From sequence record MK047718.1: a DNA stretch of 64,000 bases. One strand, written 5' to 3'. The position numbers were made by a program, and so were the translations under genes. This DNA comes from Escherichia phage p000y. The notes beneath the pieces were generated by a model that was not told where the DNA came from, searched no databases, and saw nothing but the letters and a program-made list of their open reading frames with translations. Of the stretch, positions 1,631 through 23,307 are shown in pieces; the first letter of the stretch is position 1, and each line of letters begins with the position of its first letter.

Positions 1631-4600
1631 TTATTCAATCCACTCGAATTTAACAGATTTATTCACAGGGTCTGGAATAATGCGGACATTACCAATCCTT
1701 AAGAAATCCCTTATTGTCAAGTTTCCGATTGTTGCATTATCAGAAGGTAAAGCACCAATATCAGATGGCTGAGGAGGGTTACCCCCATCAAATACTTGAA
1801 CAAAACTTGACCAAGAATTTTTAGTTTTCTGCCATGTACGAGTCCAACGGGTTGTACGTGCTTCTGGGGTTGTTGGATAAGTAATCCAATCTTGGTAAAG
1901 TGAATCAAGTGTGTTACCAAACTGAGTCAGTGTACCAGGAGATTTAACTTCTTCGCCACGTTCTAAGTATGGAAGCCCAGTCACTTCATTAGTTTTTTCA
2001 ACCATTTTAAAATAACCTGGGAACTGGTTATAAGTGGCTGAATCGTTAATATCAATTGACCAGAATCCTACATTATCAGATGTTGGCGCACGGGTATATA
2101 AATCGGATGTTTTAGTACCCTGAGAACGAATTCTCGAGTTAACAGTCAAACCGCCAGAATTTATAGTAGCACCTTTGGCAATGATTAAGCTTTCACCAAT
2201 CGTAACTTGACCGGATTGATTATTAATTGATAATGGACGTAATCCATTAAATCCACCGGTCTGATCACCAGATGCAGTAAGCATAAAATATGTGCTGCCA
2301 CCATCATTGCGAATAAAGAATCCGTAATCACCACTAATTGCTCTGAAAGCATTTGCAGACTTGCTAATGAATTCGCCATTGGCTGTAACTGAACGACCAA
2401 ATGTTGCAACGCCATTCGCATTTAACATGCCGGATGCGTTAACATTTATTGGCATCACAGTACCATTGATACTAAACGTTATATTCCCGGCTTTATTACG
2501 TTGAGAATAAAAGTGATTAGATGTTTCATCGCCAACTTCAAATACAGTAGAACGTGTTGTATCTGAACCACCACCAAATTCATTTCCCCAAACTCTGATA
2601 GTCATCGTCTGTGCTGGGTTAGTTCCAGTTTGAGGTCCTTTCTCAAAAATCAGACGAGTTGCCGTTCCAGTATTAGAAATAGTTAATGTACTATTTGCCG
2701 AAACTGAACCACCAAACGTAGCAGTACTAGATGATACAAGAGGGGCACTCAGATTCGTTTGTTGGGTTAAGGTTAGTGAACCATTAACCGTCTGTGCAAT
2801 GTCCCTACGAATGAACTGAGATGAATCTAGGCCATCTAATAAATTTGCGTCAGCAGCTTTTGCTTTTAATGGCAAATAGTTAGCAAGTACACGGTTTAAT
2901 TCATATGGAGAAATAGCATAACTATTTTTTTCATATGATTCTAAAGGTTGTGTTGAACCAACTGTATCATTACCAACGAATGTAATTGAACCAGATGAAG
3001 TTTTAACAAAACCTCTTATTGCAGTAGTAGCAGCCCATGTCGGTTCATTCTGGACAATCCATTTTAAATTCTTAGGAGATACAGCAGTATTAGCAGAAGT
3101 TCCTGTTACAGTTTCAGCCTGAGTAGCAACCTTAATTACGCCTTCAGACGTTTCAGTGGACTTAGTCCCTAAAAGCTTTTTAGGAGTAATAAGAACATCA
3201 TCTAAAGTTCCTGCATTAGATTCTGCTTGGGTCGCTACACGAAGTGTACCACGTTGTGTTTCATTTGCTTTAGAAATATCAAGAGTATAATGGTTCCACA
3301 AGGTTCCTTCTTCAATAAGTCCGGAATCAGAATTAACACTGGTACGGTCAGAAGAATCAAAATGAGTTTTAATTTTCAGTGGAGTTGAGATACGAGTATC
3401 ATCAGTTCCAGTATCAAATTCAACTTGCGTAGCAAGTTCGGCTATGCCGGATAATCCTTCCGTAGCTTTCCTATCATTTAACGTCTTAGGCGTTACTGCA
3501 CGTGTATAATCAGTCCCAGCATTAGTTTCTGTTTGCGTAGCAATTTCAATTAAACCAATACGTCCATCAGTAGAAGTTTTCTTATGTAGTGTTTCAGGAG
3601 TTACTACAGCGTGAGAATAACCTGCTTGAGATTGGCCGGCAATTACTTCACTATCAACAGCTAAAATTACTGCACCTTGTTGAGCATAAGTTGCTTTATA
3701 TTGGTCAAGGGCTTTAGGAGAAATAGTTAAATTATTTACGGTTTTATTATAAACGTTAGTGCCTGCGGTACCACGAGTTTCAGCAGGAGTAGCAGAAGTA
3801 GTTGATACATATTTAACTATACCAGATAGTGTTTCAGAACCCTGACGGGCCTGTAATTTCTTAGGCGTAATAATCGTTGTGTCATCAAGACCAGCATCGG
3901 TTTCAGCCTGAGTAGCAATTTCAGCAAGACCGCGACGAGTTTCAGTTGCTGTACGCCCATTTAGTTTTTTAGGCGTAACAATAGTATCGTCCACAAATGT
4001 TGCTGTGGAATTCTGGTTAACTTGTGCTGTTGTAGCAATTTTAGCGATACCACGTCGAGCTTCAGTTGCTGTACGATTTGCCAACGTTTCAGGAGTAATA
4101 GCCACTTCTTTAGCCGGAGTATTCTCTAAATCAACATTTGCTTGCGCTTGAGTAGCAAGAGCAATAACACCTAAACGAGCTCGTGTAGCATCAGTTCCAG
4201 CATCAACACGTTCTACCGTAGGGACGTTTTGTTGAACGACCCAATAACGTGTACCAGCAACGGTGTCTTCGATATACGCTAATTCTAATACAGGAACATA
4301 TGAAGTAGTGCCATTGAATTCTAGTTCAGTAACAGAGACCCATTGAGCATCAGGTGGATATTCAGAACGTTTAGGGAACTGAAGCAATGCAACAGAAGAA
4401 GCAATTGTATCACCTTCGGCAGCTTTAATTTTTACTGTTTGGCCTTTACGCATGTAGTTCATTGAAATTTTAACAGTGTCACCACTCAAAATTCCGGAAG
4501 GCAGCGTAAGATTAATAGTTCCGGCTGTAGCGTTATTTGTGCCAAAAATAAGAACTTCTTCATTTGGACGAATATTTGAATCCGCACGGATAATACGAAG

Positions 4601-5506
4601 ACGCGATTTCTGGTCGCCTTCCCATATACGCCATAAACTATTTGCAGCATCAAAAACAAAAAACGCGTCAGAGTCATTTCTGCCTTCGGCAATATGAGTC
4701 CCGACTTCACCAATAGACGTTGTATCATCAAATGTTTTAACAATTGTATGATACAGTGGGTTTAATTTATCTAAATCAACTAGGTGGATTATATCACCGT
4801 TGTTAGCATTACGTGGAAGTGTAATGTTGATTGGTGCTGCACTAGTAAAACGACGAACGATAAAATCATTTGCTTGTGCTTGATATGGTGTCGCAGGTGT
4901 AACAGTGATTGATTCTTTACCATAATCGGTAATATACATCTGCCACAAACGATTACTAAACACAAACAATAGTTGTGAACGTGGGCGCGTCATTAAAACC
5001 GTACGAACTTGTTCACCTCTAAAGTTTAAAATACTCTGTACAGACGCGTTAATCTGTACTTTAACTGTCCCGGTTCTTCCACCAATATCAGCCAAAACAA
5101 CAGTATCACCATCAACCGGCGTATTTGGCAACGTGAAAACCATATCATTGCCGGCACCAGTGTTAACCGAAATAGATTCACCTGAAGAAAGTTGATAAGT
5201 CCCAGAAGCGACAGTTATCCATTGTGCATCAGTACGAACTGCACGCCATTGTAAAAGGTTAAATGCCCCGGAAGGAGACACGATATCATTTATTGCTTGA
5301 TATAAACGGTTGTCATAAAGAACAACAAATCCTTTGTTATATCCACGCGTAGAATCATATACTTGAACGGTGTTTTCTTGTACCAGGAAGTCAACGTTTA
5401 CGCCATCAGTACCTACTGTACGGTCGGCTAATGCTACGTTAACAATCTTGTCGCCACCGGCGTCCAGACCGTCTTCGGCTCTGAACTTACGTTTGATGTC
5501 GGCCAT
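1631..5506 (-). CDS. 34: Long tail fiber proximal subunit gp34
   Basis: 1291-aa ORF (T4 gp34 ~1289 aa); repeated GxxxIAT(Q)AE tail-fiber motifs; adjacent and divergent to rnh as in T4. Confidence 0.9.
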   Translation of the reverse strand: MADIKRKFRAEDGLDAGGDKIVNVALADRTVGTDGVNVDFLVQENTVQVYDSTRGYNKGFVVLYDNRLYQAINDIVSPSGAFNLLQWRAVRTDAQWITVASGTYQLSSGESISVNTGAGNDMVFTLPNTPVDGDTVVLADIGGRTGTVKVQINASVQSILNFRGEQVRTVLMTRPRSQLLFVFSNRLWQMYITDYGKESITVTPATPYQAQANDFIVRRFTSAAPINITLPRNANNGDIIHLVDLDKLNPLYHTIVKTFDDTTSIGEVGTHIAEGRNDSDAFFVFDAANSLWRIWEGDQKSRLRIIRADSNIRPNEEVLIFGTNNATAGTINLTLPSGILSGDTVKISMNYMRKGQTVKIKAAEGDTIASSVALLQFPKRSEYPPDAQWVSVTELEFNGTTSYVPVLELAYIEDTVAGTRYWVVQQNVPTVERVDAGTDATRARLGVIALATQAQANVDLENTPAKEVAITPETLANRTATEARRGIAKIATTAQVNQNSTATFVDDTIVTPKKLNGRTATETRRGLAEIATQAETDAGLDDTTIITPKKLQARQGSETLSGIVKYVSTTSATPAETRGTAGTNVYNKTVNNLTISPKALDQYKATYAQQGAVILAVDSEVIAGQSQAGYSHAVVTPETLHKKTSTDGRIGLIEIATQTETNAGTDYTRAVTPKTLNDRKATEGLSGIAELATQVEFDTGTDDTRISTPLKIKTHFDSSDRTSVNSDSGLIEEGTLWNHYTLDISKANETQRGTLRVATQAESNAGTLDDVLITPKKLLGTKSTETSEGVIKVATQAETVTGTSANTAVSPKNLKWIVQNEPTWAATTAIRGFVKTSSGSITFVGNDTVGSTQPLESYEKNSYAISPYELNRVLANYLPLKAKAADANLLDGLDSSQFIRRDIAQTVNGSLTLTQQTNLSAPLVSSSTATFGGSVSANSTLTISNTGTATRLIFEKGPQTGTNPAQTMTIRVWGNEFGGGSDTTRSTVFEVGDETSNHFYSQRNKAGNITFSINGTVMPINVNASGMLNANGVATFGRSVTANGEFISKSANAFRAISGDYGFFIRNDGGSTYFMLTASGDQTGGFNGLRPLSINNQSGQVTIGESLIIAKGATINSGGLTVNSRIRSQGTKTSDLYTRAPTSDNVGFWSIDINDSATYNQFPGYFKMVEKTNEVTGLPYLERGEEVKSPGTLTQFGNTLDSLYQDWITYPTTPEARTTRWTRTWQKTKNSWSSFVQVFDGGNPPQPSDIGALPSDNATIGNLTIRDFLRIGNVRIIPDPVNKSVKFEWIE

Positions 5507-6534: not shown

Positions 6535-6804
6535 ATGGCTAAGAAAGAAGCAGTTGAATTTAATCAAGATGTGCACGGTGAAGAACTGGCTAAACTAGTC
6601 AAGGAAGCTTCCGATAACAAACTTAAAATTTCTGGTTATAATGAACTGATTAAAGACATTCGTACTCGTGCTAAAGAAGAGCTTGGTGTTGATGGAAAAA
6701 TGTTTAATCGTTTGTTAGCTCTTTATCATAAAGACGCTCGTGACCAATTTGAAGCTGAAAACGAAGAGGTAGTCGAGCTTTATGACACAGTTTTCACTAA
6801 GTGA
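6535..6804 (+). CDS. dsbA: dsDNA-binding late transcription enhancer DsbA
   Basis: ATG at 6535 with GAGG RBS gives 89 aa MAKKEAVEF..., matching T4 DsbA length and sequence; track ORF begins upstream at 6517. Confidence 0.85.
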   Translation: MAKKEAVEFNQDVHGEELAKLVKEASDNKLKISGYNELIKDIRTRAKEELGVDGKMFNRLLALYHKDARDQFEAENEEVVELYDTVFTK

Positions 6805-7120
6805 TATTAAACCGGTTGATGAGGCCGGTTTATCTGAACAAGAATTAGCAGTAAAACACGATAAAGATGATATCGCTAAATTGCTTGACCGACAAGAAAA
6901 CGGATTCATTATCGAATCCATGGTTGAACAATTTGGTATGTCTTATTTAGAAGCAACAACTGCTTTCTTGGAAGAAAATTCTATTCCAGAAACACAATTT
7001 GCTAAATTTATTCCTACAGGAATTGTTGAAAAAATTACAAGCGAAGCAATTGACGAAAACATGCTTCGCCCATCAGTTGCTCGTGGTGAAAAAACTAATA
7101 CGTTAGATTTCTTATTATGA
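6782..7120 (+). CDS. 33: Late transcription co-activator gp33
   Basis: 112 aa, MTQFSLSDIKPVDE...TNTLDFLL matches T4 gp33 (112 aa). Confidence 0.9.
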   Translation: MTQFSLSDIKPVDEAGLSEQELAVKHDKDDIAKLLDRQENGFIIESMVEQFGMSYLEATTAFLEENSIPETQFAKFIPTGIVEKITSEAIDENMLRPSVARGEKTNTLDFLL

Positions 7121-7770
7121 TTAAAATACGCATGCCTCCTGATGGAGAACGTTATATTAACGGAAAATCGGTATACAAACTATACTTGATGTGCAAACAA
7201 CATTTTAATGGTCGGTATGACGTAATCAAATATAACTGGTGCATGCGTGTTTCGGATAATGCGTATCAAAAACGCCGAGATAAATATTTCTTTGAAAAAC
7301 TAGCAGAGAAATATAAATTGAAGGAACTCACCTTGATATTCATAAGCAACTTAGTTGCTAACCAAGACGCATGGATTGGTGAGATATCAGACGCTGATGC
7401 ATTAGTTTTCTATAGGGAATATATTGGACGTCTCAAACAAGCTAAAGAGACGTTTTCTGAAGACGTACGTAACATCTACTATTTCAGTAAGAAAGTTGAA
7501 GTTAGTGCGCTTCAAGAGATATTTGATTATAATAACAACGTTCAGTCGAGCTACATATTCAAATTGCTACAAAGCAATATAATTTCATTTGAGACTTTCT
7601 TATTGTTAGACTCGTTTTTGAATATTATAGATAAGCACGACGAACTCACTGACAATTTAGTGTGGCAAAATTATTCTACCAAATTAAAGGCATATCGAAA
7701 AATACTTCAAATCGATGGAAATGCTGCTAAGAAATTGTTCATAGAAACAATCAAATCATGTAAGTATTAA
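7117..7770 (+). CDS. 59: Helicase loader gp59
   Basis: 217 aa, same length as T4 gp59; located between 33 and 32. Confidence 0.9.
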   Translation: MIKIRMPPDGERYINGKSVYKLYLMCKQHFNGRYDVIKYNWCMRVSDNAYQKRRDKYFFEKLAEKYKLKELTLIFISNLVANQDAWIGEISDADALVFYREYIGRLKQAKETFSEDVRNIYYFSKKVEVSALQEIFDYNNNVQSSYIFKLLQSNIISFETFLLLDSFLNIIDKHDELTDNLVWQNYSTKLKAYRKILQIDGNAAKKLFIETIKSCKY

Positions 7771-18737: not shown

Positions 18738-19824
<1,087 letters not shown>

Positions 19825-20016
19825 ATGAAACGATTATATGAAGTGATTGAGGCCATCGAACATCATAAAGAATATTTGTTTGTAGCCTGGCCTTTAGTAA
19901 ATGGACAGTTCGGTATTGATGTGCTGGACTATGAGCATGAAGAACGTTTGGACGGCGGTATATTTGATAACGTCGACCAGGCAATTGAATGGTTAAATGA
20001 AAACTATGTACGATAA
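19825..20016 (+). CDS. Hypothetical protein
   Basis: 63-aa ORF, ATG at 19825. Confidence 0.45.
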   Translation: MKRLYEVIEAIEHHKEYLFVAWPLVNGQFGIDVLDYEHEERLDGGIFDNVDQAIEWLNENYVR

Positions 20017-20221
20017 ACATCATGAAATAGAAGATGAAGCATACAAAATGCTTCGTAAACTAGTGGGACTTAATATGAGTCCTACATTAATCAACAAACT
20101 CGCAGGAATTCGTAATGATCTGAATACTCGTTACAAAGGTGAATATCATGTAGAGTTTGTTCCTGTAGGTGAACCAACCGAGCGATTTGTTGTTCGAGTT
20201 AAAGTAAATACTGTGCACTGA
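19997..20221 (+). CDS. Hypothetical protein
   Basis: 74-aa ORF overlapping previous ORF by 20 nt in another frame. Confidence 0.45.
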   Translation: MKTMYDKHHEIEDEAYKMLRKLVGLNMSPTLINKLAGIRNDLNTRYKGEYHVEFVPVGEPTERFVVRVKVNTVH

Positions 20222-20228
20222 GGTAATT

Positions 20229-20504
20229 ATGTTCCCAACTTATTCTGAAATTGTAAAGGTAGTCTTCAGTCAGATTATTGCTAATAATATGTTTGAAGTG
20301 CTTGATAATGCAGCCGAACTCAGAGTTCATGCTCAAGTAACTCATGTACTCAATGCTTTGCTCCCAGACCAAGTAGATTCTATTGCTATTACTCTTCTCC
20401 CTGGATCTGCACACGTCATCGTGGTATTTGATCTTGACGGCGATTTAGTTATCCAATGTGATATCAATTTCGGTACACAAAAAATTGAATGCAAAGCAAT
20501 TTGA
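20229..20504 (+). CDS. Hypothetical protein
   Basis: 91-aa ORF. Confidence 0.45.
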   Translation: MFPTYSEIVKVVFSQIIANNMFEVLDNAAELRVHAQVTHVLNALLPDQVDSIAITLLPGSAHVIVVFDLDGDLVIQCDINFGTQKIECKAI

Positions 20505-20516
20505 TGGTTTACAACA

Positions 20517-20546
20517 TGGTGGAGTTGTGATACTATAACTCTACCA
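20517..20546 (+). promoter_or_regulatory. T4 early promoter
   Basis: GTTTAC-N18-TACTAT plus leader ccaacaaatgaggaaa. Confidence 0.6.
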
Positions 20547-20564
20547 ACAAATGAGGAAATAGAA

Positions 20565-20801
20565 ATGCTAAGTGAAAACCCAATTACAGTACACGAATTT
20601 CAGATTAAAGTAAAAGAATTTGCTCAAGCACTCATCAATAAAGTGTCTGAACGTTTCCAAGATGCAACATTACGAGTTATTCAAGAATCTCCACGTTCTT
20701 TTCTCATAATCGTTAATCCTAAAGATGGTGACCAAATTACTAATCTTAAATTAGGCAGTGATGGTCTTGTTGAAGCAACTCGAGTATATGGAACACTATA
20801 A
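20565..20801 (+). CDS. Hypothetical protein
   Basis: 78-aa ORF with early promoter at 20517-20546 and GAGGA RBS. Confidence 0.5.
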   Translation: MLSENPITVHEFQIKVKEFAQALINKVSERFQDATLRVIQESPRSFLIIVNPKDGDQITNLKLGSDGLVEATRVYGTL

Positions 20802-20921
20802 TGAGAGCTATCTCATTACTATCGAGAATGGTCATAAATCTGAGCACTACCAACTTAGCCTGTCTAATCCGGTTAAAGGTATTGTTGAATCAGAATCTGT
20901 TTATATCTCCTAAGGATTGTT

Positions 20922-21914
20922 ATGTTACCTGTCGTCGGAAAACTTATTTCTCCAAAAGAACTGGCTGAGATTATTCCTTTGTCGGAAGCTTACGCATCAC
21001 AAGTGGCTTCTCATCGCGAACAAGTTAATTCGATTATGAACGGTGAAGACCCACGCAAACTTATTGTTGTAGGTCCTTGTTCAATTCATGACCCTATTGC
21101 TGCTGTTGAATACGGCAAACGTCTGGCTGAACTTCAAACTCGTCTTCCTAATGTTCTGTTAGTGATGCGCGTTTATTTTGAAAAGCCTCGAACTACCGTA
21201 GGTTGGAAAGGTCTTGTAAATGATCCATATCTTGACGGAAGTTTTGATATGAACCACGGTCTTATAGTTGCACGAACATTGTGTCGTAAACTTCTACGTA
21301 TGGGACTTCCATTAGCAACTGAAGTATTAGACCCATTCACGATTAAGTATCTTTCTGGTATTTTCTCATGGGTTGCTATTGGCGCCCGTACGACTGAAAG
21401 TCAGACACATCGTGAAATTGCTTCAGGTCTACCGATGTGCGTAGGCTTCAAGAACGCAACCAATGGTTCTATTAAAGTAGCTACAGACGCGATGTATAGC
21501 GCCGCCTGGCCTCATCGGTATATGGGTATGGACGTCGATGGTACTGTAGGCATTGTTGAAGCTGAAGGTAATCAGAATACGCATATCGTATTGCGTGGCG
21601 GGACCAACGGCCCGAACTATCATTCTTCTGATATTCAAGAAGCTTCTAACAAAGCAAGTGCAGTAGGTCTGAATCATTATGTAATGGTTGACTGTAGCCA
21701 TGCAAACGCTGCTGGGCATTATAGCAATCAAATTGGTATTGGTAAAAATTTAGCAGCTAATGATTTGGTCAAAGGAATTATGATAGAATCATTCCTACAT
21801 GAAGGAAATCAAAAAATTTCTGATAATATGTCCTATGGCGTTTCCGTTACCGATGCGTGCATCAGTTGGGAACAAACTAAAGAGCTGTTAACTTATATTA
21901 ATAAGGTTCAATAA
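20922..21914 (+). CDS. 3-deoxy-D-arabino-heptulosonate-7-phosphate (DAHP) synthase, class I (AroG/AroF/AroH-like)
   Basis: 330 aa with motifs VVGPCSIHDP, MRVYFEKPRTTVGWKGL, AIGARTTESQTHRE, VMVDCSHAN, ESFLHEGNQ, SVTDACI that align with E. coli AroG as I recall it; AGGA RBS; stop overlaps cd start. Confidence 0.88.
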   Translation: MLPVVGKLISPKELAEIIPLSEAYASQVASHREQVNSIMNGEDPRKLIVVGPCSIHDPIAAVEYGKRLAELQTRLPNVLLVMRVYFEKPRTTVGWKGLVNDPYLDGSFDMNHGLIVARTLCRKLLRMGLPLATEVLDPFTIKYLSGIFSWVAIGARTTESQTHREIASGLPMCVGFKNATNGSIKVATDAMYSAAWPHRYMGMDVDGTVGIVEAEGNQNTHIVLRGGTNGPNYHSSDIQEASNKASAVGLNHYVMVDCSHANAAGHYSNQIGIGKNLAANDLVKGIMIESFLHEGNQKISDNMSYGVSVTDACISWEQTKELLTYINKVQ

Positions 21915-22495
21915 TGAAAGCTAGCACATATCTTCAAATTGCTTATTTGATTTCTCAAGAATCAAAATGTTGTTCATGGAAAGTTGGTGCCGTCATTGAA
22001 AAAGATGGACGCATTATTTCTACAGGTTATAATGGCTCTCCTTCAGGTGGTACAAACTGTTGCGAACATGCATCCGAAAACGGTTGGTTGAAGAATAAAC
22101 CAAGCCCGGTCATCGTTGCTGGGCATAAAGAAGGCACTACAGCATTTGGACGGGTGGATAATTTTGTTTTGGCTAAAGAACATCGAGCGGCTCATAGTGC
22201 ATGGTCTGCTAATAATGAAATCCATGCTGAATTGAATGCAATTTTGTTTGCAGCTCGTAAAGGTAATTCTATTGAAGGTGCTACGTTATATACGACGCTT
22301 TCTCCGTGTCCTGATTGCACTAAAGCTATTACACAGTCAGGTATTAAAAAGGTTGTATACGCAGAATTATATGACAGATCTCCTGAAAATTGGGCAGACA
22401 TTCTAAAACAAGCCGGTATTGAAGTAATTCAGTACTCTCGTAATAATCTTCGTTCTCTGAATTGGGAACAAATCCGAAACTTTTGTGGTGAATAA
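21914..22495 (+). CDS. cd: dCMP deaminase
   Basis: 193 aa (T4 Cd 193 aa); zinc motifs HAELNAI and PCPDC. Confidence 0.95.
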   Translation: MKASTYLQIAYLISQESKCCSWKVGAVIEKDGRIISTGYNGSPSGGTNCCEHASENGWLKNKPSPVIVAGHKEGTTAFGRVDNFVLAKEHRAAHSAWSANNEIHAELNAILFAARKGNSIEGATLYTTLSPCPDCTKAITQSGIKKVVYAELYDRSPENWADILKQAGIEVIQYSRNNLRSLNWEQIRNFCGE

Positions 22496-22496
22496 T

Positions 22497-22793
22497 ATGA
22501 TTTTAACTGAACAAGAGACTATGGTTCTTCGTGAACGTATTAAAACTATTCTGTCTGTAGGCGTTCATTGTGTTGTATTTGAAAAGGCTAACGGTGAGGT
22601 ACGCACTATGTTTGCTTCGCGCGATGAACTTGAAGTCAAATATGAAAATAACAATCCGGCAACAGAAGTTCGTTCTGAACCTCGTGAATCAGTTCGAGCA
22701 TTCGATACCAAGTTAGGTCAGTGGCGTTCTTTCCGCCTTGATAAAGTAATTTCGGTTGATGGTACTCCGGTAGAACGTTTGCTTCTTATGTAA
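22497..22793 (+). CDS. Hypothetical protein (between cd and 31)
   Basis: ATG at 22497 in TAATATG overlap with cd stop (track ORF begins at GTG 22485); ~98 aa. Confidence 0.5.
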   Translation: MILTEQETMVLRERIKTILSVGVHCVVFEKANGEVRTMFASRDELEVKYENNNPATEVRSEPRESVRAFDTKLGQWRSFRLDKVISVDGTPVERLLLM

Positions 22794-22795
22794 TA

Positions 22796-22820
22796 TGCTT
22801 TACGAATAGTATGGTATTAT
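22796..22820 (+). promoter_or_regulatory. Putative MotA-dependent middle promoter for gene 31
   Basis: MotA-box-like TGCTTTA with TATTAT 12 nt downstream. Confidence 0.4.
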
Positions 22821-22850
22821 TAATCTATCGTCAAACAACAAGGAAATAAG

Positions 22851-23183
22851 ATGTCTGAAGTACAACTCCCAATTCGTGCTGTTGGTGAATATGTCATTCT
22901 GGTTTCTGAACCCGCTCAAGCAGGTGATGAAGAAGTTACCGAATCAGGACTTGTGATTGGTAAACGTGTTCAAGGTGAAGTTCCTGAACTATGTATAGTT
23001 CATTCTGTAGGTCCTGATGTTCCTGAAGGTTTTGTTGAAGTCGGTGATTTGACTCCACTACCAGTTGGACAAATTCGAAATGTTCCACATCCATTTGTGG
23101 CTTTAGGACTTAAACAACCTAAAGAAATTAAACAGAAATTCGTAACATGCCACTATAAAGCTATTCCGTGTCTTTATAAGTGA
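22851..23183 (+). CDS. 31: Co-chaperonin gp31 (GroES-like)
   Basis: 110 aa, [34 protein letters not shown]... near-identical to remembered T4 gp31. Confidence 0.95.
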
Positions 23184-23191
23184 TATAAATA
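23184..23191 (+). promoter_or_regulatory. Late promoter (TATAAATA) between gene 31 and rIII
   Basis: Exact TATAAATA directly after gene 31 stop. Confidence 0.5.
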
Positions 23192-23307
23192 ACTATATGA
23201 AGAGAACACTCTTCTAAGCGGTAGCCTACAACTGAGAGACTTGTCGAAAGAAGGTGAAATTCAGACGAACGTGGCTACTAAATATTATCTCGAATTGAGA
23301 ATTTAAA

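Follow-up and report, generated by a model that had tools for sequence, protein, structure and literature searches.

A DAHP synthase with a rewritten and conserved allosteric site in Escherichia phage p000y and related T4-like phages

Introduction

[quoted passage not shown] In the type Iα enzymes, an N-terminal extension and a β-hairpin form the dimer interface and the phenylalanine site (PMC4735112). Here we describe a phage-encoded member of this family, located in a 64,000-nucleotide stretch of the genome of Escherichia phage p000y (accession number: MK047718.1), hereafter the window. The gene lies in a Mosigvirus-type genome context, as follows.

20922–21914, plus strand: DAHPS coding sequence, 330 amino acids, ATG start, stop codon included (from the open reading frame (ORF) listing)

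DAHPS genes in T4-like phages are already known; they are annotated in many GenBank records and have been mentioned for phages phiC120 and KLB31. The protein in the Mosigvirus phiC120 is 99.4% identical to that of p000y, and the phiC120 paper notes a DAHP synthetase domain in passing. In Klebsiella phage KLB31, a Kanagawavirus, the DAHPS was flagged as a hypothetical auxiliary metabolic gene (AMG), and members of Kanagawavirus fall in the same clade as the p000y protein. These two papers name the domain or hypothesize a role, and the allosteric site, N-terminus, clade structure and selection were not analyzed in them. The new element, as judged from sequence comparison, is that the DAHPS allosteric site is rewritten throughout the clade, in a manner that is statistically concentrated there and conserved. 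Since the gene itself is in the databases already, the value of the present work lies in the analysis of this regulatory site.

Natural DAHP synthases that escape aromatic control have been described in bacteria. PhzC (PaeDAH7PS PA1901), a type IIB enzyme from a phenazine cluster, is an extra isozyme that lacks functional aromatic allosteric sites and provides an unregulated entry into the shikimate pathway for a dedicated purpose. It is a precedent for a natural unregulated DAHPS that answers a special demand. PhzC differs from the phage protein in being a bacterial enzyme of the type II class, which lost its sites because helices are omitted and the quaternary structure is a new one, rather than through point remodeling.

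Identity and catalytic site of the phage DAHPS

The p000y protein matches Pfam DAHP_synth_1 (PF00793) with 251.8 bits (cutoff 25.5; E = 7.4e-75), the NCBIfam aroFGH equivalog TIGR00034 with 427 bits (cutoff 173.2), and PRK12755 with 454.8 bits (cutoff 343). Among solved structures, E. coli AroF matches best (6agm, E = 1.5e-104), and the Neisseria meningitidis DAHPS and AroG come next. An AlphaFold2 model of the protein has a predicted local distance difference test (pLDDT) score of 93.9 and a predicted template modeling (pTM) score of 0.92. In Foldseek, it superimposes on AroG (8e0u) and the N. meningitidis enzyme (4hso) with a template modeling (TM) score of 0.96 and a root-mean-square deviation of 1.4 Å. 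The model predicts a (β/α)8 barrel preceded by an N-terminal extension, which is shortened by 9–11 residues, and the β6a/6b hairpin is kept in it (strands 198–203 and 209–214).

The characteristic motifs are found at residues 51 (GPCSIHD), 88 (KPRTTVGWKGL), 138 (PFTIK), 154 (GARTTESQ), 215 and 294 (EGNQ), 257 (DCSHAN), and 310 (TDACI). For residue-level comparison, 25 phage-clade sequences were set against 98 bacterial sequences using AroG numbering. The metal ligands C53, H260, E289, and D311, equivalent to C61, H268, E302, and D326 in AroG, are invariant in all 25 phage-clade and all 98 bacterial sequences. The residues that bind PEP (phosphoenolpyruvate) and E4P (erythrose-4-phosphate), namely R92, K97, G163, A164, R165, K186, and R234 in AroG, and the KPRT motif are identical in the p000y protein, throughout the clade and in every sequence compared, so that 12 of 12 metal, PEP and KPRT residues are retained in each of the 25 phage sequences. 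The phage enzyme is thus predicted to be catalytically competent, converting PEP and E4P to DAHP and inorganic phosphate.

A sequence-only reading of the window had recognized a 330-aa DAHPS ORF by these motifs, with the metal ligands apparently present, had placed it upstream of cd in the hypervariable pseT-cd region, and had stated that T4 has no shikimate-pathway gene. The searches and alignments bore out the enzyme class, the ligands, a position immediately upstream of cd, and the absence of DAHPS from T4. The reading's description of the enzyme as AroG-like was not. The phage protein shares 51% amino acid identity with E. coli AroF vs 47% with AroG. It scores 364 bits against the equivalog for Phe-sensitive AroG (NF006723), below the cutoff of 568, and 384.8 bits against that for Trp-sensitive AroH (NF009396), below the cutoff of 463. 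It also carries determinants of the AroF type, namely a proline at AroG position 147 (P138; P148 in AroF) and a glycine at AroG position 211 (G202; G212 in AroF and G226 in Aro4). By these sequence criteria, the protein is a type Iα DAHP synthase of the AroF type rather than AroG-like, and the phage clade appears derived from an AroF-type (tyrosine-type) ancestor.

A shifted substrate or product was also considered, for example a reaction like that of 3-deoxy-D-manno-octulosonate 8-phosphate (KDO8P) synthase that would feed cell-envelope or DNA-sugar modification. Mosigvirus DNA has been reported to be modified with unusual sugars. The phiC120 paper loosely ties the domain to lipopolysaccharide as well as to aromatic biosynthesis. 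We consider such a shift very improbable, given that the KPRT(T)VGWKG motif is invariant, as is every PEP, E4P and metal ligand, and that the TIGR00034 cutoff is exceeded. The column scan described below likewise found no switched column among the catalytic and ligand positions checked.

Rewriting of the allosteric site

An unbiased scan was performed for alignment columns that are conserved in at least 90% of the phage sequences and at least 80% of the bacterial sequences, yet with different residues. It returned only nine columns (AroG numbering): A73G, P150I, Q151K, D155G, L156I, M175I, S180P, F209Y, and T223A. Six of them (150, 151, 155, 175, 180, and 209) are among the 14 positions that a 2022 study connects with the inhibitor site or with feedback resistance (PMC9529685; hypergeometric p = 1.6e-7), and positions 156 and 223 adjoin positions on that list. 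None of the nine is among the 12 catalytic and substrate-ligand positions checked. The features concerned are located in the window as follows.

20922–20951, plus strand: short N-terminus MLPVVGKLIS; extension truncated, with a TGA at 20886
21321–21371, plus strand: remodeled allosteric segment E134–W150 (EVLDPFTIKYLSGIFSW), in which I141, K142, G146, and I147 correspond to AroG P150, Q151, D155, and L156
21432–21434, plus strand: codon for P171, equivalent to AroG S180; proline in 25/25 phage-clade and serine in 95/98 bacterial sequences
21519–21521, plus strand: codon for Y200, equivalent to AroG F209; tyrosine in 25/25 phage-clade and phenylalanine in 95/98 bacterial sequences

The canonical pocket residues P150, Q151, D155, S180, and F209 are present in 89–96 of the 98 bacteria. 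In the phage clade they are replaced by I, K, G, P, and Y in 24–25 of the 25 members. The basal member P0022 has K151, G155, P180, and Y209 but retains P150. Relative to E. coli AroF (6AGM), the phage enzyme has in common the fold, the metal, PEP and E4P ligands, and the pocket residues P148 and G212, and it has I, K, G, P, and Y where AroF has P151, Q152, D156, S181, and F210.

The N-terminus is altered as well. The number of residues before the AroG P18 column is 7–11 in the phage clade, whereas in the 98 bacterial relatives it is never below 15, with a median of 18.5. The phage N-termini are therefore 9–11 residues shorter than those of AroF, AroG, and AroH, without the stretch that holds D6 and D7 in AroG and N8 in AroF; compared with AroF, about nine N-terminal residues including N8 are missing from the p000y protein. 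A longer N-terminus is impossible because of the in-frame TGA at 20886, 5' of the ATG. Collectively, these comparisons indicate that the pocket for aromatic amino acids (the N-terminal extension, positions 146–156 and 175–180, and the β6a/6b hairpin) has been rewritten in the phage lineage and that the catalytic center is untouched.

Correspondence with feedback-resistant alleles

Many of the rewritten positions are known from feedback-resistant mutants. AroG P150L and D146N are fully feedback-resistant; S180F, L175D, L179A, F209A/S, and V221A are feedback-resistant, and Q151 has been implicated (PMC9529685). S180 is an inhibitor contact in AroG. AroF becomes tyrosine-insensitive when P148 or Q152 is replaced or Ile11 is deleted (PMC5791370), and Q166K is a standard feedback-resistant allele of yeast ARO4. 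In an alignment with the database chain 1hfb_A, Aro4 Q166 corresponds to AroG Q151, AroF Q152 and phage K142. Aro4 P165, S195, F224, and G226 correspond to phage I141, P171, Y200, and G202. Set beside AroG P150L, S180F, D146N, and F209A and ARO4 Q166K, the phage enzyme thus has I141, K142, P171, and Y200 at coinciding positions. According to the alignments, the phage clade carries the exact Q-to-K change, changes at two further positions where a single hit confers resistance, and the N-terminal truncation. The laboratory alleles are single mutations that frequently impair activity or stability, whereas the phage set is natural, multi-site, apparently co-adapted and strictly conserved, and comes with a truncation. 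A parallel between phage I141 and Corynebacterium glutamicum AroF P155I was also considered and rejected, since P155 aligns to AroG M147, where the phage protein keeps a proline.

The sequence-only reading had proposed feedback resistance on the basis of an N-terminal truncation and of an altered segment reading PFTIK in place of AroG MITPQ (147–151), where substitutions are reported to be feedback-resistant. The truncation and the altered segment are both found in the alignments. The hypothesis is now strengthened because the changes are clade-wide, are statistically concentrated in the allosteric site, and coincide with positions known from resistant enzymes, namely those of AroG P150L and S180F, AroF Q152 and the Ile11 deletion, and ARO4 Q166K. 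Insensitivity to Phe, Tyr, and Trp is strongly suggested and is the most likely state of the enzyme, because mutation of the same positions in E. coli and yeast yields feedback-resistant enzymes.

Alternatively, the enzyme may still be inhibited, most likely by tyrosine, through a variant pocket; it would then be an ordinary extra regulated isozyme that raises capacity. This alternative draws on the pocket parts that are retained, including the AroF-type residues P138 and G202, as well as D137, L170, and V212, together with the hairpin kept in the structural model. Some engineered pocket substitutions also leave inhibition intact. Inhibition persisted in the N156I, T220V, and D222A variants of C. 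glutamicum AroF, and the variant D163A (equivalent to D155) was not expressible. Q159A (equivalent to Q151) and S188F (equivalent to S180) relieved inhibition at 50 μM Tyr with a cost in stability or activity, and at 5 mM Tyr the activity of Q159A was down to about 20%. The effects of single substitutions therefore depend on context. However, in the phage enzyme five residues that are near-invariant in the 98 bacterial relatives and implicated in binding or resistance are changed together, the Q-to-K change equals a known feedback-resistant allele, and the site lacks the N-terminal residues needed to complete it. On these grounds, tyrosine sensitivity of the phage enzyme seems unlikely, and we regard a retained feedback loop as improbable.

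Conservation of the rewritten site

Sequence entropy was calculated on a non-redundant set of 16 phage and 60 bacterial sequences for 17 inhibitor-site positions, with a permutation test. Entropy at the inhibitor site is 0.44 times the background in the phage clade (p = 0.008) and 0.73 times in bacteria. In the segment covering AroG 143–160 (EVLDPFTIKYLSGIFSW), the mean entropy is 0.18 in phages vs 0.87 in bacteria, and AroG positions 148, 149, and 154, variable in bacteria, are fixed in phages. The rewritten site varies less than the remainder of the protein and is therefore not decaying; the pattern argues for a co-adapted, constrained solution.

Such conservation is not predicted by simple loss of a ligand site, and the pocket may bind something. 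The invariant segment may have been re-purposed to bind another effector, such as a nucleotide or a pathway intermediate, or to dock a phage or host protein. The low entropy of the inhibitor site, the phage-fixed positions 148, 149, and 154, and the β6a/6b hairpin kept in the model are all consistent with this. In addition, the adjoining Cd protein is annotated as under allosteric control by hydroxymethyl-dCTP (hm-dCTP) and dCTP, so phage-specific effectors exist in this neighborhood. No candidate ligand or partner was identified, and packing constraints explain the conservation equally well, as single changes destabilize canonical enzymes and a co-adapted set would be frozen. A re-purposed pocket is a conceivable but unlikely alternative to a disabled feedback site. 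It would amount to a new regulatory class, in which a rebuilt tyrosine pocket senses a phage effector or docking partner and couples shikimate entry to the phage program, an outcome to which we give only a small chance.

Distribution, phylogeny and selection

A tblastn search revealed a homolog in 212 of 50,697 phage records, many of them annotated as DAHP synthase, aroF or AroG. In 139 of the 212 records, from Mosigviruses of E. coli and Shigella, the homolog is at least 95% identical to that of p000y. The remaining records, 45–77% identical, are from T4-like phages of Enterobacter, Edwardsiella, Erwinia, Serratia, Klebsiella, Proteus, and Providencia. Among the 142 Mosigvirus-type records, defined by at least 95% identity over positions 18900–23200 of the window, 139 cover at least 80% of that query. 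The gene order pseT .. DAHPS .. cd - gp31 - rIII is shared by Marfavirus, Bragavirus, Winklervirus, Kagamiyamavirus, and Kanagawavirus and by two metagenomic T4-like contigs, and the order pseT .. DAHPS .. cd is also present in Mosigvirus. An intact DAHPS ORF occurs at this locus in at least seven genera.

Identity thresholds failed to separate phage from bacterial groups cleanly, and a bootstrapped neighbor-joining tree was used instead. The T4-like phage proteins are monophyletic in this tree (95.5% of 200 bootstraps), and they share at most 55% amino acid identity with any bacterial protein. The G+C content of the gene is 41.4%, with 29.6% at third codon positions, similar to that of its phage neighbors, whereas E. 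coli aroF and aroG have 52%. A recent capture from the E. coli host was therefore rejected on the basis of the low identity to bacterial enzymes and the phage-like G+C content. The clade is an old one, restricted to T4-like phages.

Within Mosigvirus, the ratio of nonsynonymous to synonymous substitution rates (dN/dS) is uninformative, with 8–9 substitutions per pair, and between-genus pairs were used. Between genera, dN/dS is 0.14–0.24 with dS near saturation; the exception is the least saturated pair, Entb_45 vs PEi26 (dS 0.62), which gives 0.16. These values indicate purifying selection on DAHPS, an accessory gene, apart from the losses in RB69 and vB_EcoM_G53 described below. As a host-type enzyme in a lytic-phage genome, conserved under selection and outside the core set, it qualifies as a phage AMG.

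Some database matches were set aside. Two contigs labeled 'Acinetobacter phage MD-2021a' (CAKLQH020000043.1 and CAKLQH020000056.1) are bacterial chromosome, with clpS, clpA, bioH, and fadH around aroF, and such mislabeled contigs inflate counts of phage DAHPS. The DAHPS on a fecal 'Bacteriophage sp.' contig, from another subfamily and of uncertain origin, gave no information.

Homologs in other viral genomes

A scan of IMG/VR retrieved 68 DAHPS loci, of which 10 are T4-like and 58 are others, mostly giant-virus metagenome-assembled genomes (MAGs). All 10 T4-like loci read P-I-K-G-P-Y-G (one with S in the first place) and have an N-terminal stub of 9–10 residues. The phage-type set I-K-G-P-Y is absent from all 58 other homologs, 48 of which are fully canonical, with P-Q-D-S-F at AroG 150, 151, 155, 180, and 209. 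The remaining ones differ at one or more positions, for example with His 151, Glu 155 or Ala 150, and the N-termini of all 58 have at least 12 residues. These homologs resemble the phage enzyme in being type Iα with intact catalytic residues, and differ from it in that their site is not phage-type. The idea that viruses in general carry a deregulated DAHPS was accordingly rejected, as no homolog from a giant-virus MAG or other viral contig has a phage-type site. Since it is absent from these 58 homologs, the rewritten site is a property of the T4-like clade and not of viruses at large.

The scan also yielded some observations on the other viral enzymes. Dozens of giant-virus MAG contigs (loci L034–L087) encode putatively viral type Iα DAHPS with a canonical or near-canonical site, and two viral genomes of 1.8–2.0 Mb, a pandoravirus-like size (L072 and L076), have A-P-D-G-F at AroG 150, 151, 155, 180, and 209. 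Aeromonas phage HJ05 (79 kb) has an independent, unannotated DAHPS homolog of 387 aa (positions 3899–5062 of locus L014; 38% identity). Its N-terminal extension is rich in His and Lys, its catalytic residues are intact, and its pocket is divergent, with A150, H151, P155, P180, and V209.

Gene neighborhood and predicted expression

The interval around DAHPS contains the following features.

18925–19824: pseT, upstream of DAHPS
20508–20536, plus strand: TTTACA-17-TGATACTAT, a sigma-70/T4-early-type promoter flanked by the homologs of cd.3 and cd.2 (consensus scan)
20565–20801, plus strand: cd.2 homolog (DUF7320; Pfam PF24005, E = 1.5e-35); the equivalent gene is named cd.2 in RB69 and PEi26
20788–20913, plus strand: small ORF of 41 codons (MEHYNESYLITIENGHKSEHYQLSLSNPVKGIVESESVYIS), between cd.2 and DAHPS, within the segment absent from RB69
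20911–20915, plus strand: Shine-Dalgarno sequence AAGGA, 6 nt 5' of the DAHPS ATG and overlapping the stop of the small upstream ORF (read from the sequence)
21914–22495, plus strand: cd, encoding dCMP deaminase (Pfam dCMP_cyt_deam_1, E = 1.7e-26)

The small ORFs between pseT and DAHPS are homologs of T4/RB69 cd.4, cd.3 (DUF7355), and cd.2 (DUF7320). The 41-codon ORF, whose stop overlaps the DAHPS Shine-Dalgarno sequence, has an annotated coding sequence at the equivalent place in phages SHSML-52-1 and vB_EcoM_G53. The start codon of cd overlaps the stop codon of DAHPS (TAATG), so the two genes are probably co-transcribed and translationally coupled.

A generic scan for promoters and terminators did no better than chance (16 sites found vs 21 expected), and the only site retained was the promoter at 20508–20536, whose sequence is homologous to an early promoter that the T4 record places between cd.3 and cd.2. 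The scan found no terminator-like site on the plus strand between this promoter and DAHPS, and neither a T4 late promoter (TATAAATA) nor a MotA-box middle promoter was found upstream of DAHPS. Transcription of cd.2, the small ORF, DAHPS, and cd probably begins at the early promoter, and DAHPS is probably expressed early, as one unit with cd.

Automated annotation of the pseT-cd region is unreliable. In the records of the O157 typing phages KP869101, KP869104, and KP869111, pseT is labeled 'zeta toxin' and cd is labeled 'ribD riboflavin biosynthesis protein'. Homing or intron endonuclease genes are present within the interval in vB_EcoM_WFbE185 and in Proteus phage PM2 (positions 1606–2322 of locus L005), and these insertions underline that the interval is a hotspot of gene gain and loss.

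Absence from T4 and natural null alleles

The pseT-cd interval of T4 contains only cd.1 to cd.5 and no DAHPS gene, and a tblastn search found no homolog in T4. RB69, the founding member of Mosigvirus, has flanks that are 96–97% identical to the window but is missing approximately positions 20817–21910, a 1.1-kb segment that includes DAHPS. The segment is bounded by a 17-nt imperfect direct repeat, the two copies of which are identical at 14 of 17 positions; RB69 has a single copy.

20798–20814, plus strand: upstream repeat copy (ATAATGAGAGCTATCTC), comprising the cd.2 stop and a vestigial cd-like start; the RB69 alignment breaks here
21911–21927, plus strand: downstream repeat copy (ATAATGAAAGCTAGCAC), comprising the DAHPS stop and the true cd start

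The upstream copy resembles a duplicated, vestigial start of cd (MRAIS.. vs MKAST..). This arrangement fits a deletion or an insertion through short-repeat recombination. The RB69 Cd protein (positions 6743–7252 of locus L013) is annotated with 169 aa vs 193 aa in the window and T4, and the DNA aligns without a large gap; the shorter C-terminus could be due to a premature stop or to a difference in annotation.

In vB_EcoM_G53, the genome closest to p000y overall, a 55-bp tandem duplication near window position 21615 frameshifts DAHPS after residue ~248, and the gene is recorded in GenBank as a misc_feature. This frameshift may represent a natural null allele or else an artifact of the assembly. 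The absence from RB69 and the frameshift in vB_EcoM_G53 would fit a decaying passenger gene, or an annotation artifact, without function for the phage. This possibility is already disfavored and we find it hardly credible, in view of the intact ORFs at the same locus across genera, the low dN/dS, the invariant catalytic residues, the G+C content fully ameliorated to phage values, and the coverage of the locus in nearly all Mosigvirus-type records. Since RB69 is a natural null and vB_EcoM_G53 a putative one, DAHPS, near-fixed in Mosigvirus, is yet dispensable, at least in the laboratory.

Proposed role in infection

We consider it probable that p000y and its relatives encode an early-expressed, catalytically normal DAHPS with a disabled feedback site, which would give unregulated entry into the shikimate pathway. 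T4-type phages shut off host transcription, and alc, which is responsible for host transcription shut-off, is annotated in the T4 record. In the proposed scheme, the phage DAHPS would be expressed early from the T4-type promoter upstream of cd.2, together with cd. Its rebuilt pocket would no longer sense Phe, Tyr, or Trp and its catalytic center would work normally. With the host isozymes inhibited and repressed and host transcription off, the phage enzyme would supply an unregulated flux into the pathway, and host AroB to AroC would carry this flux as far as chorismate, from which aromatic amino acids and perhaps folate or quinone precursors would be made.

Several points weigh against this interpretation. 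The pocket parts D137, P138, L170, G202, and V212 and the β6a/6b hairpin are retained, the C. glutamicum variants show how much a substitution depends on its context, the conservation of the rewritten site is not what simple loss of a ligand site predicts, and the gene is dispensable, at least in the laboratory. No downstream shikimate gene was seen adjoining DAHPS in the neighborhood, and literature searches retrieved no biochemical, genetic, expression or regulatory study of any phage DAHPS.

If the enzyme is feedback-insensitive, it would clearly exemplify how a lytic coliphage overrides the end-product control of its host at the entrance to a pathway for amino acids and cofactors. The conserved pocket would also represent a naturally evolved, stable, multi-site answer to a problem that engineers meet with costly feedback-resistant alleles of aroG, aroF and ARO4. 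The DAHPS-bearing Mosigviruses, compared with RB69 (deletion) and vB_EcoM_G53 (frameshift), would offer a ready test system for the benefit of extra shikimate flux. The AMG idea, best known from nucleotide and photosynthesis genes, would then extend to aromatic biosynthesis in enteric T4-like phages.

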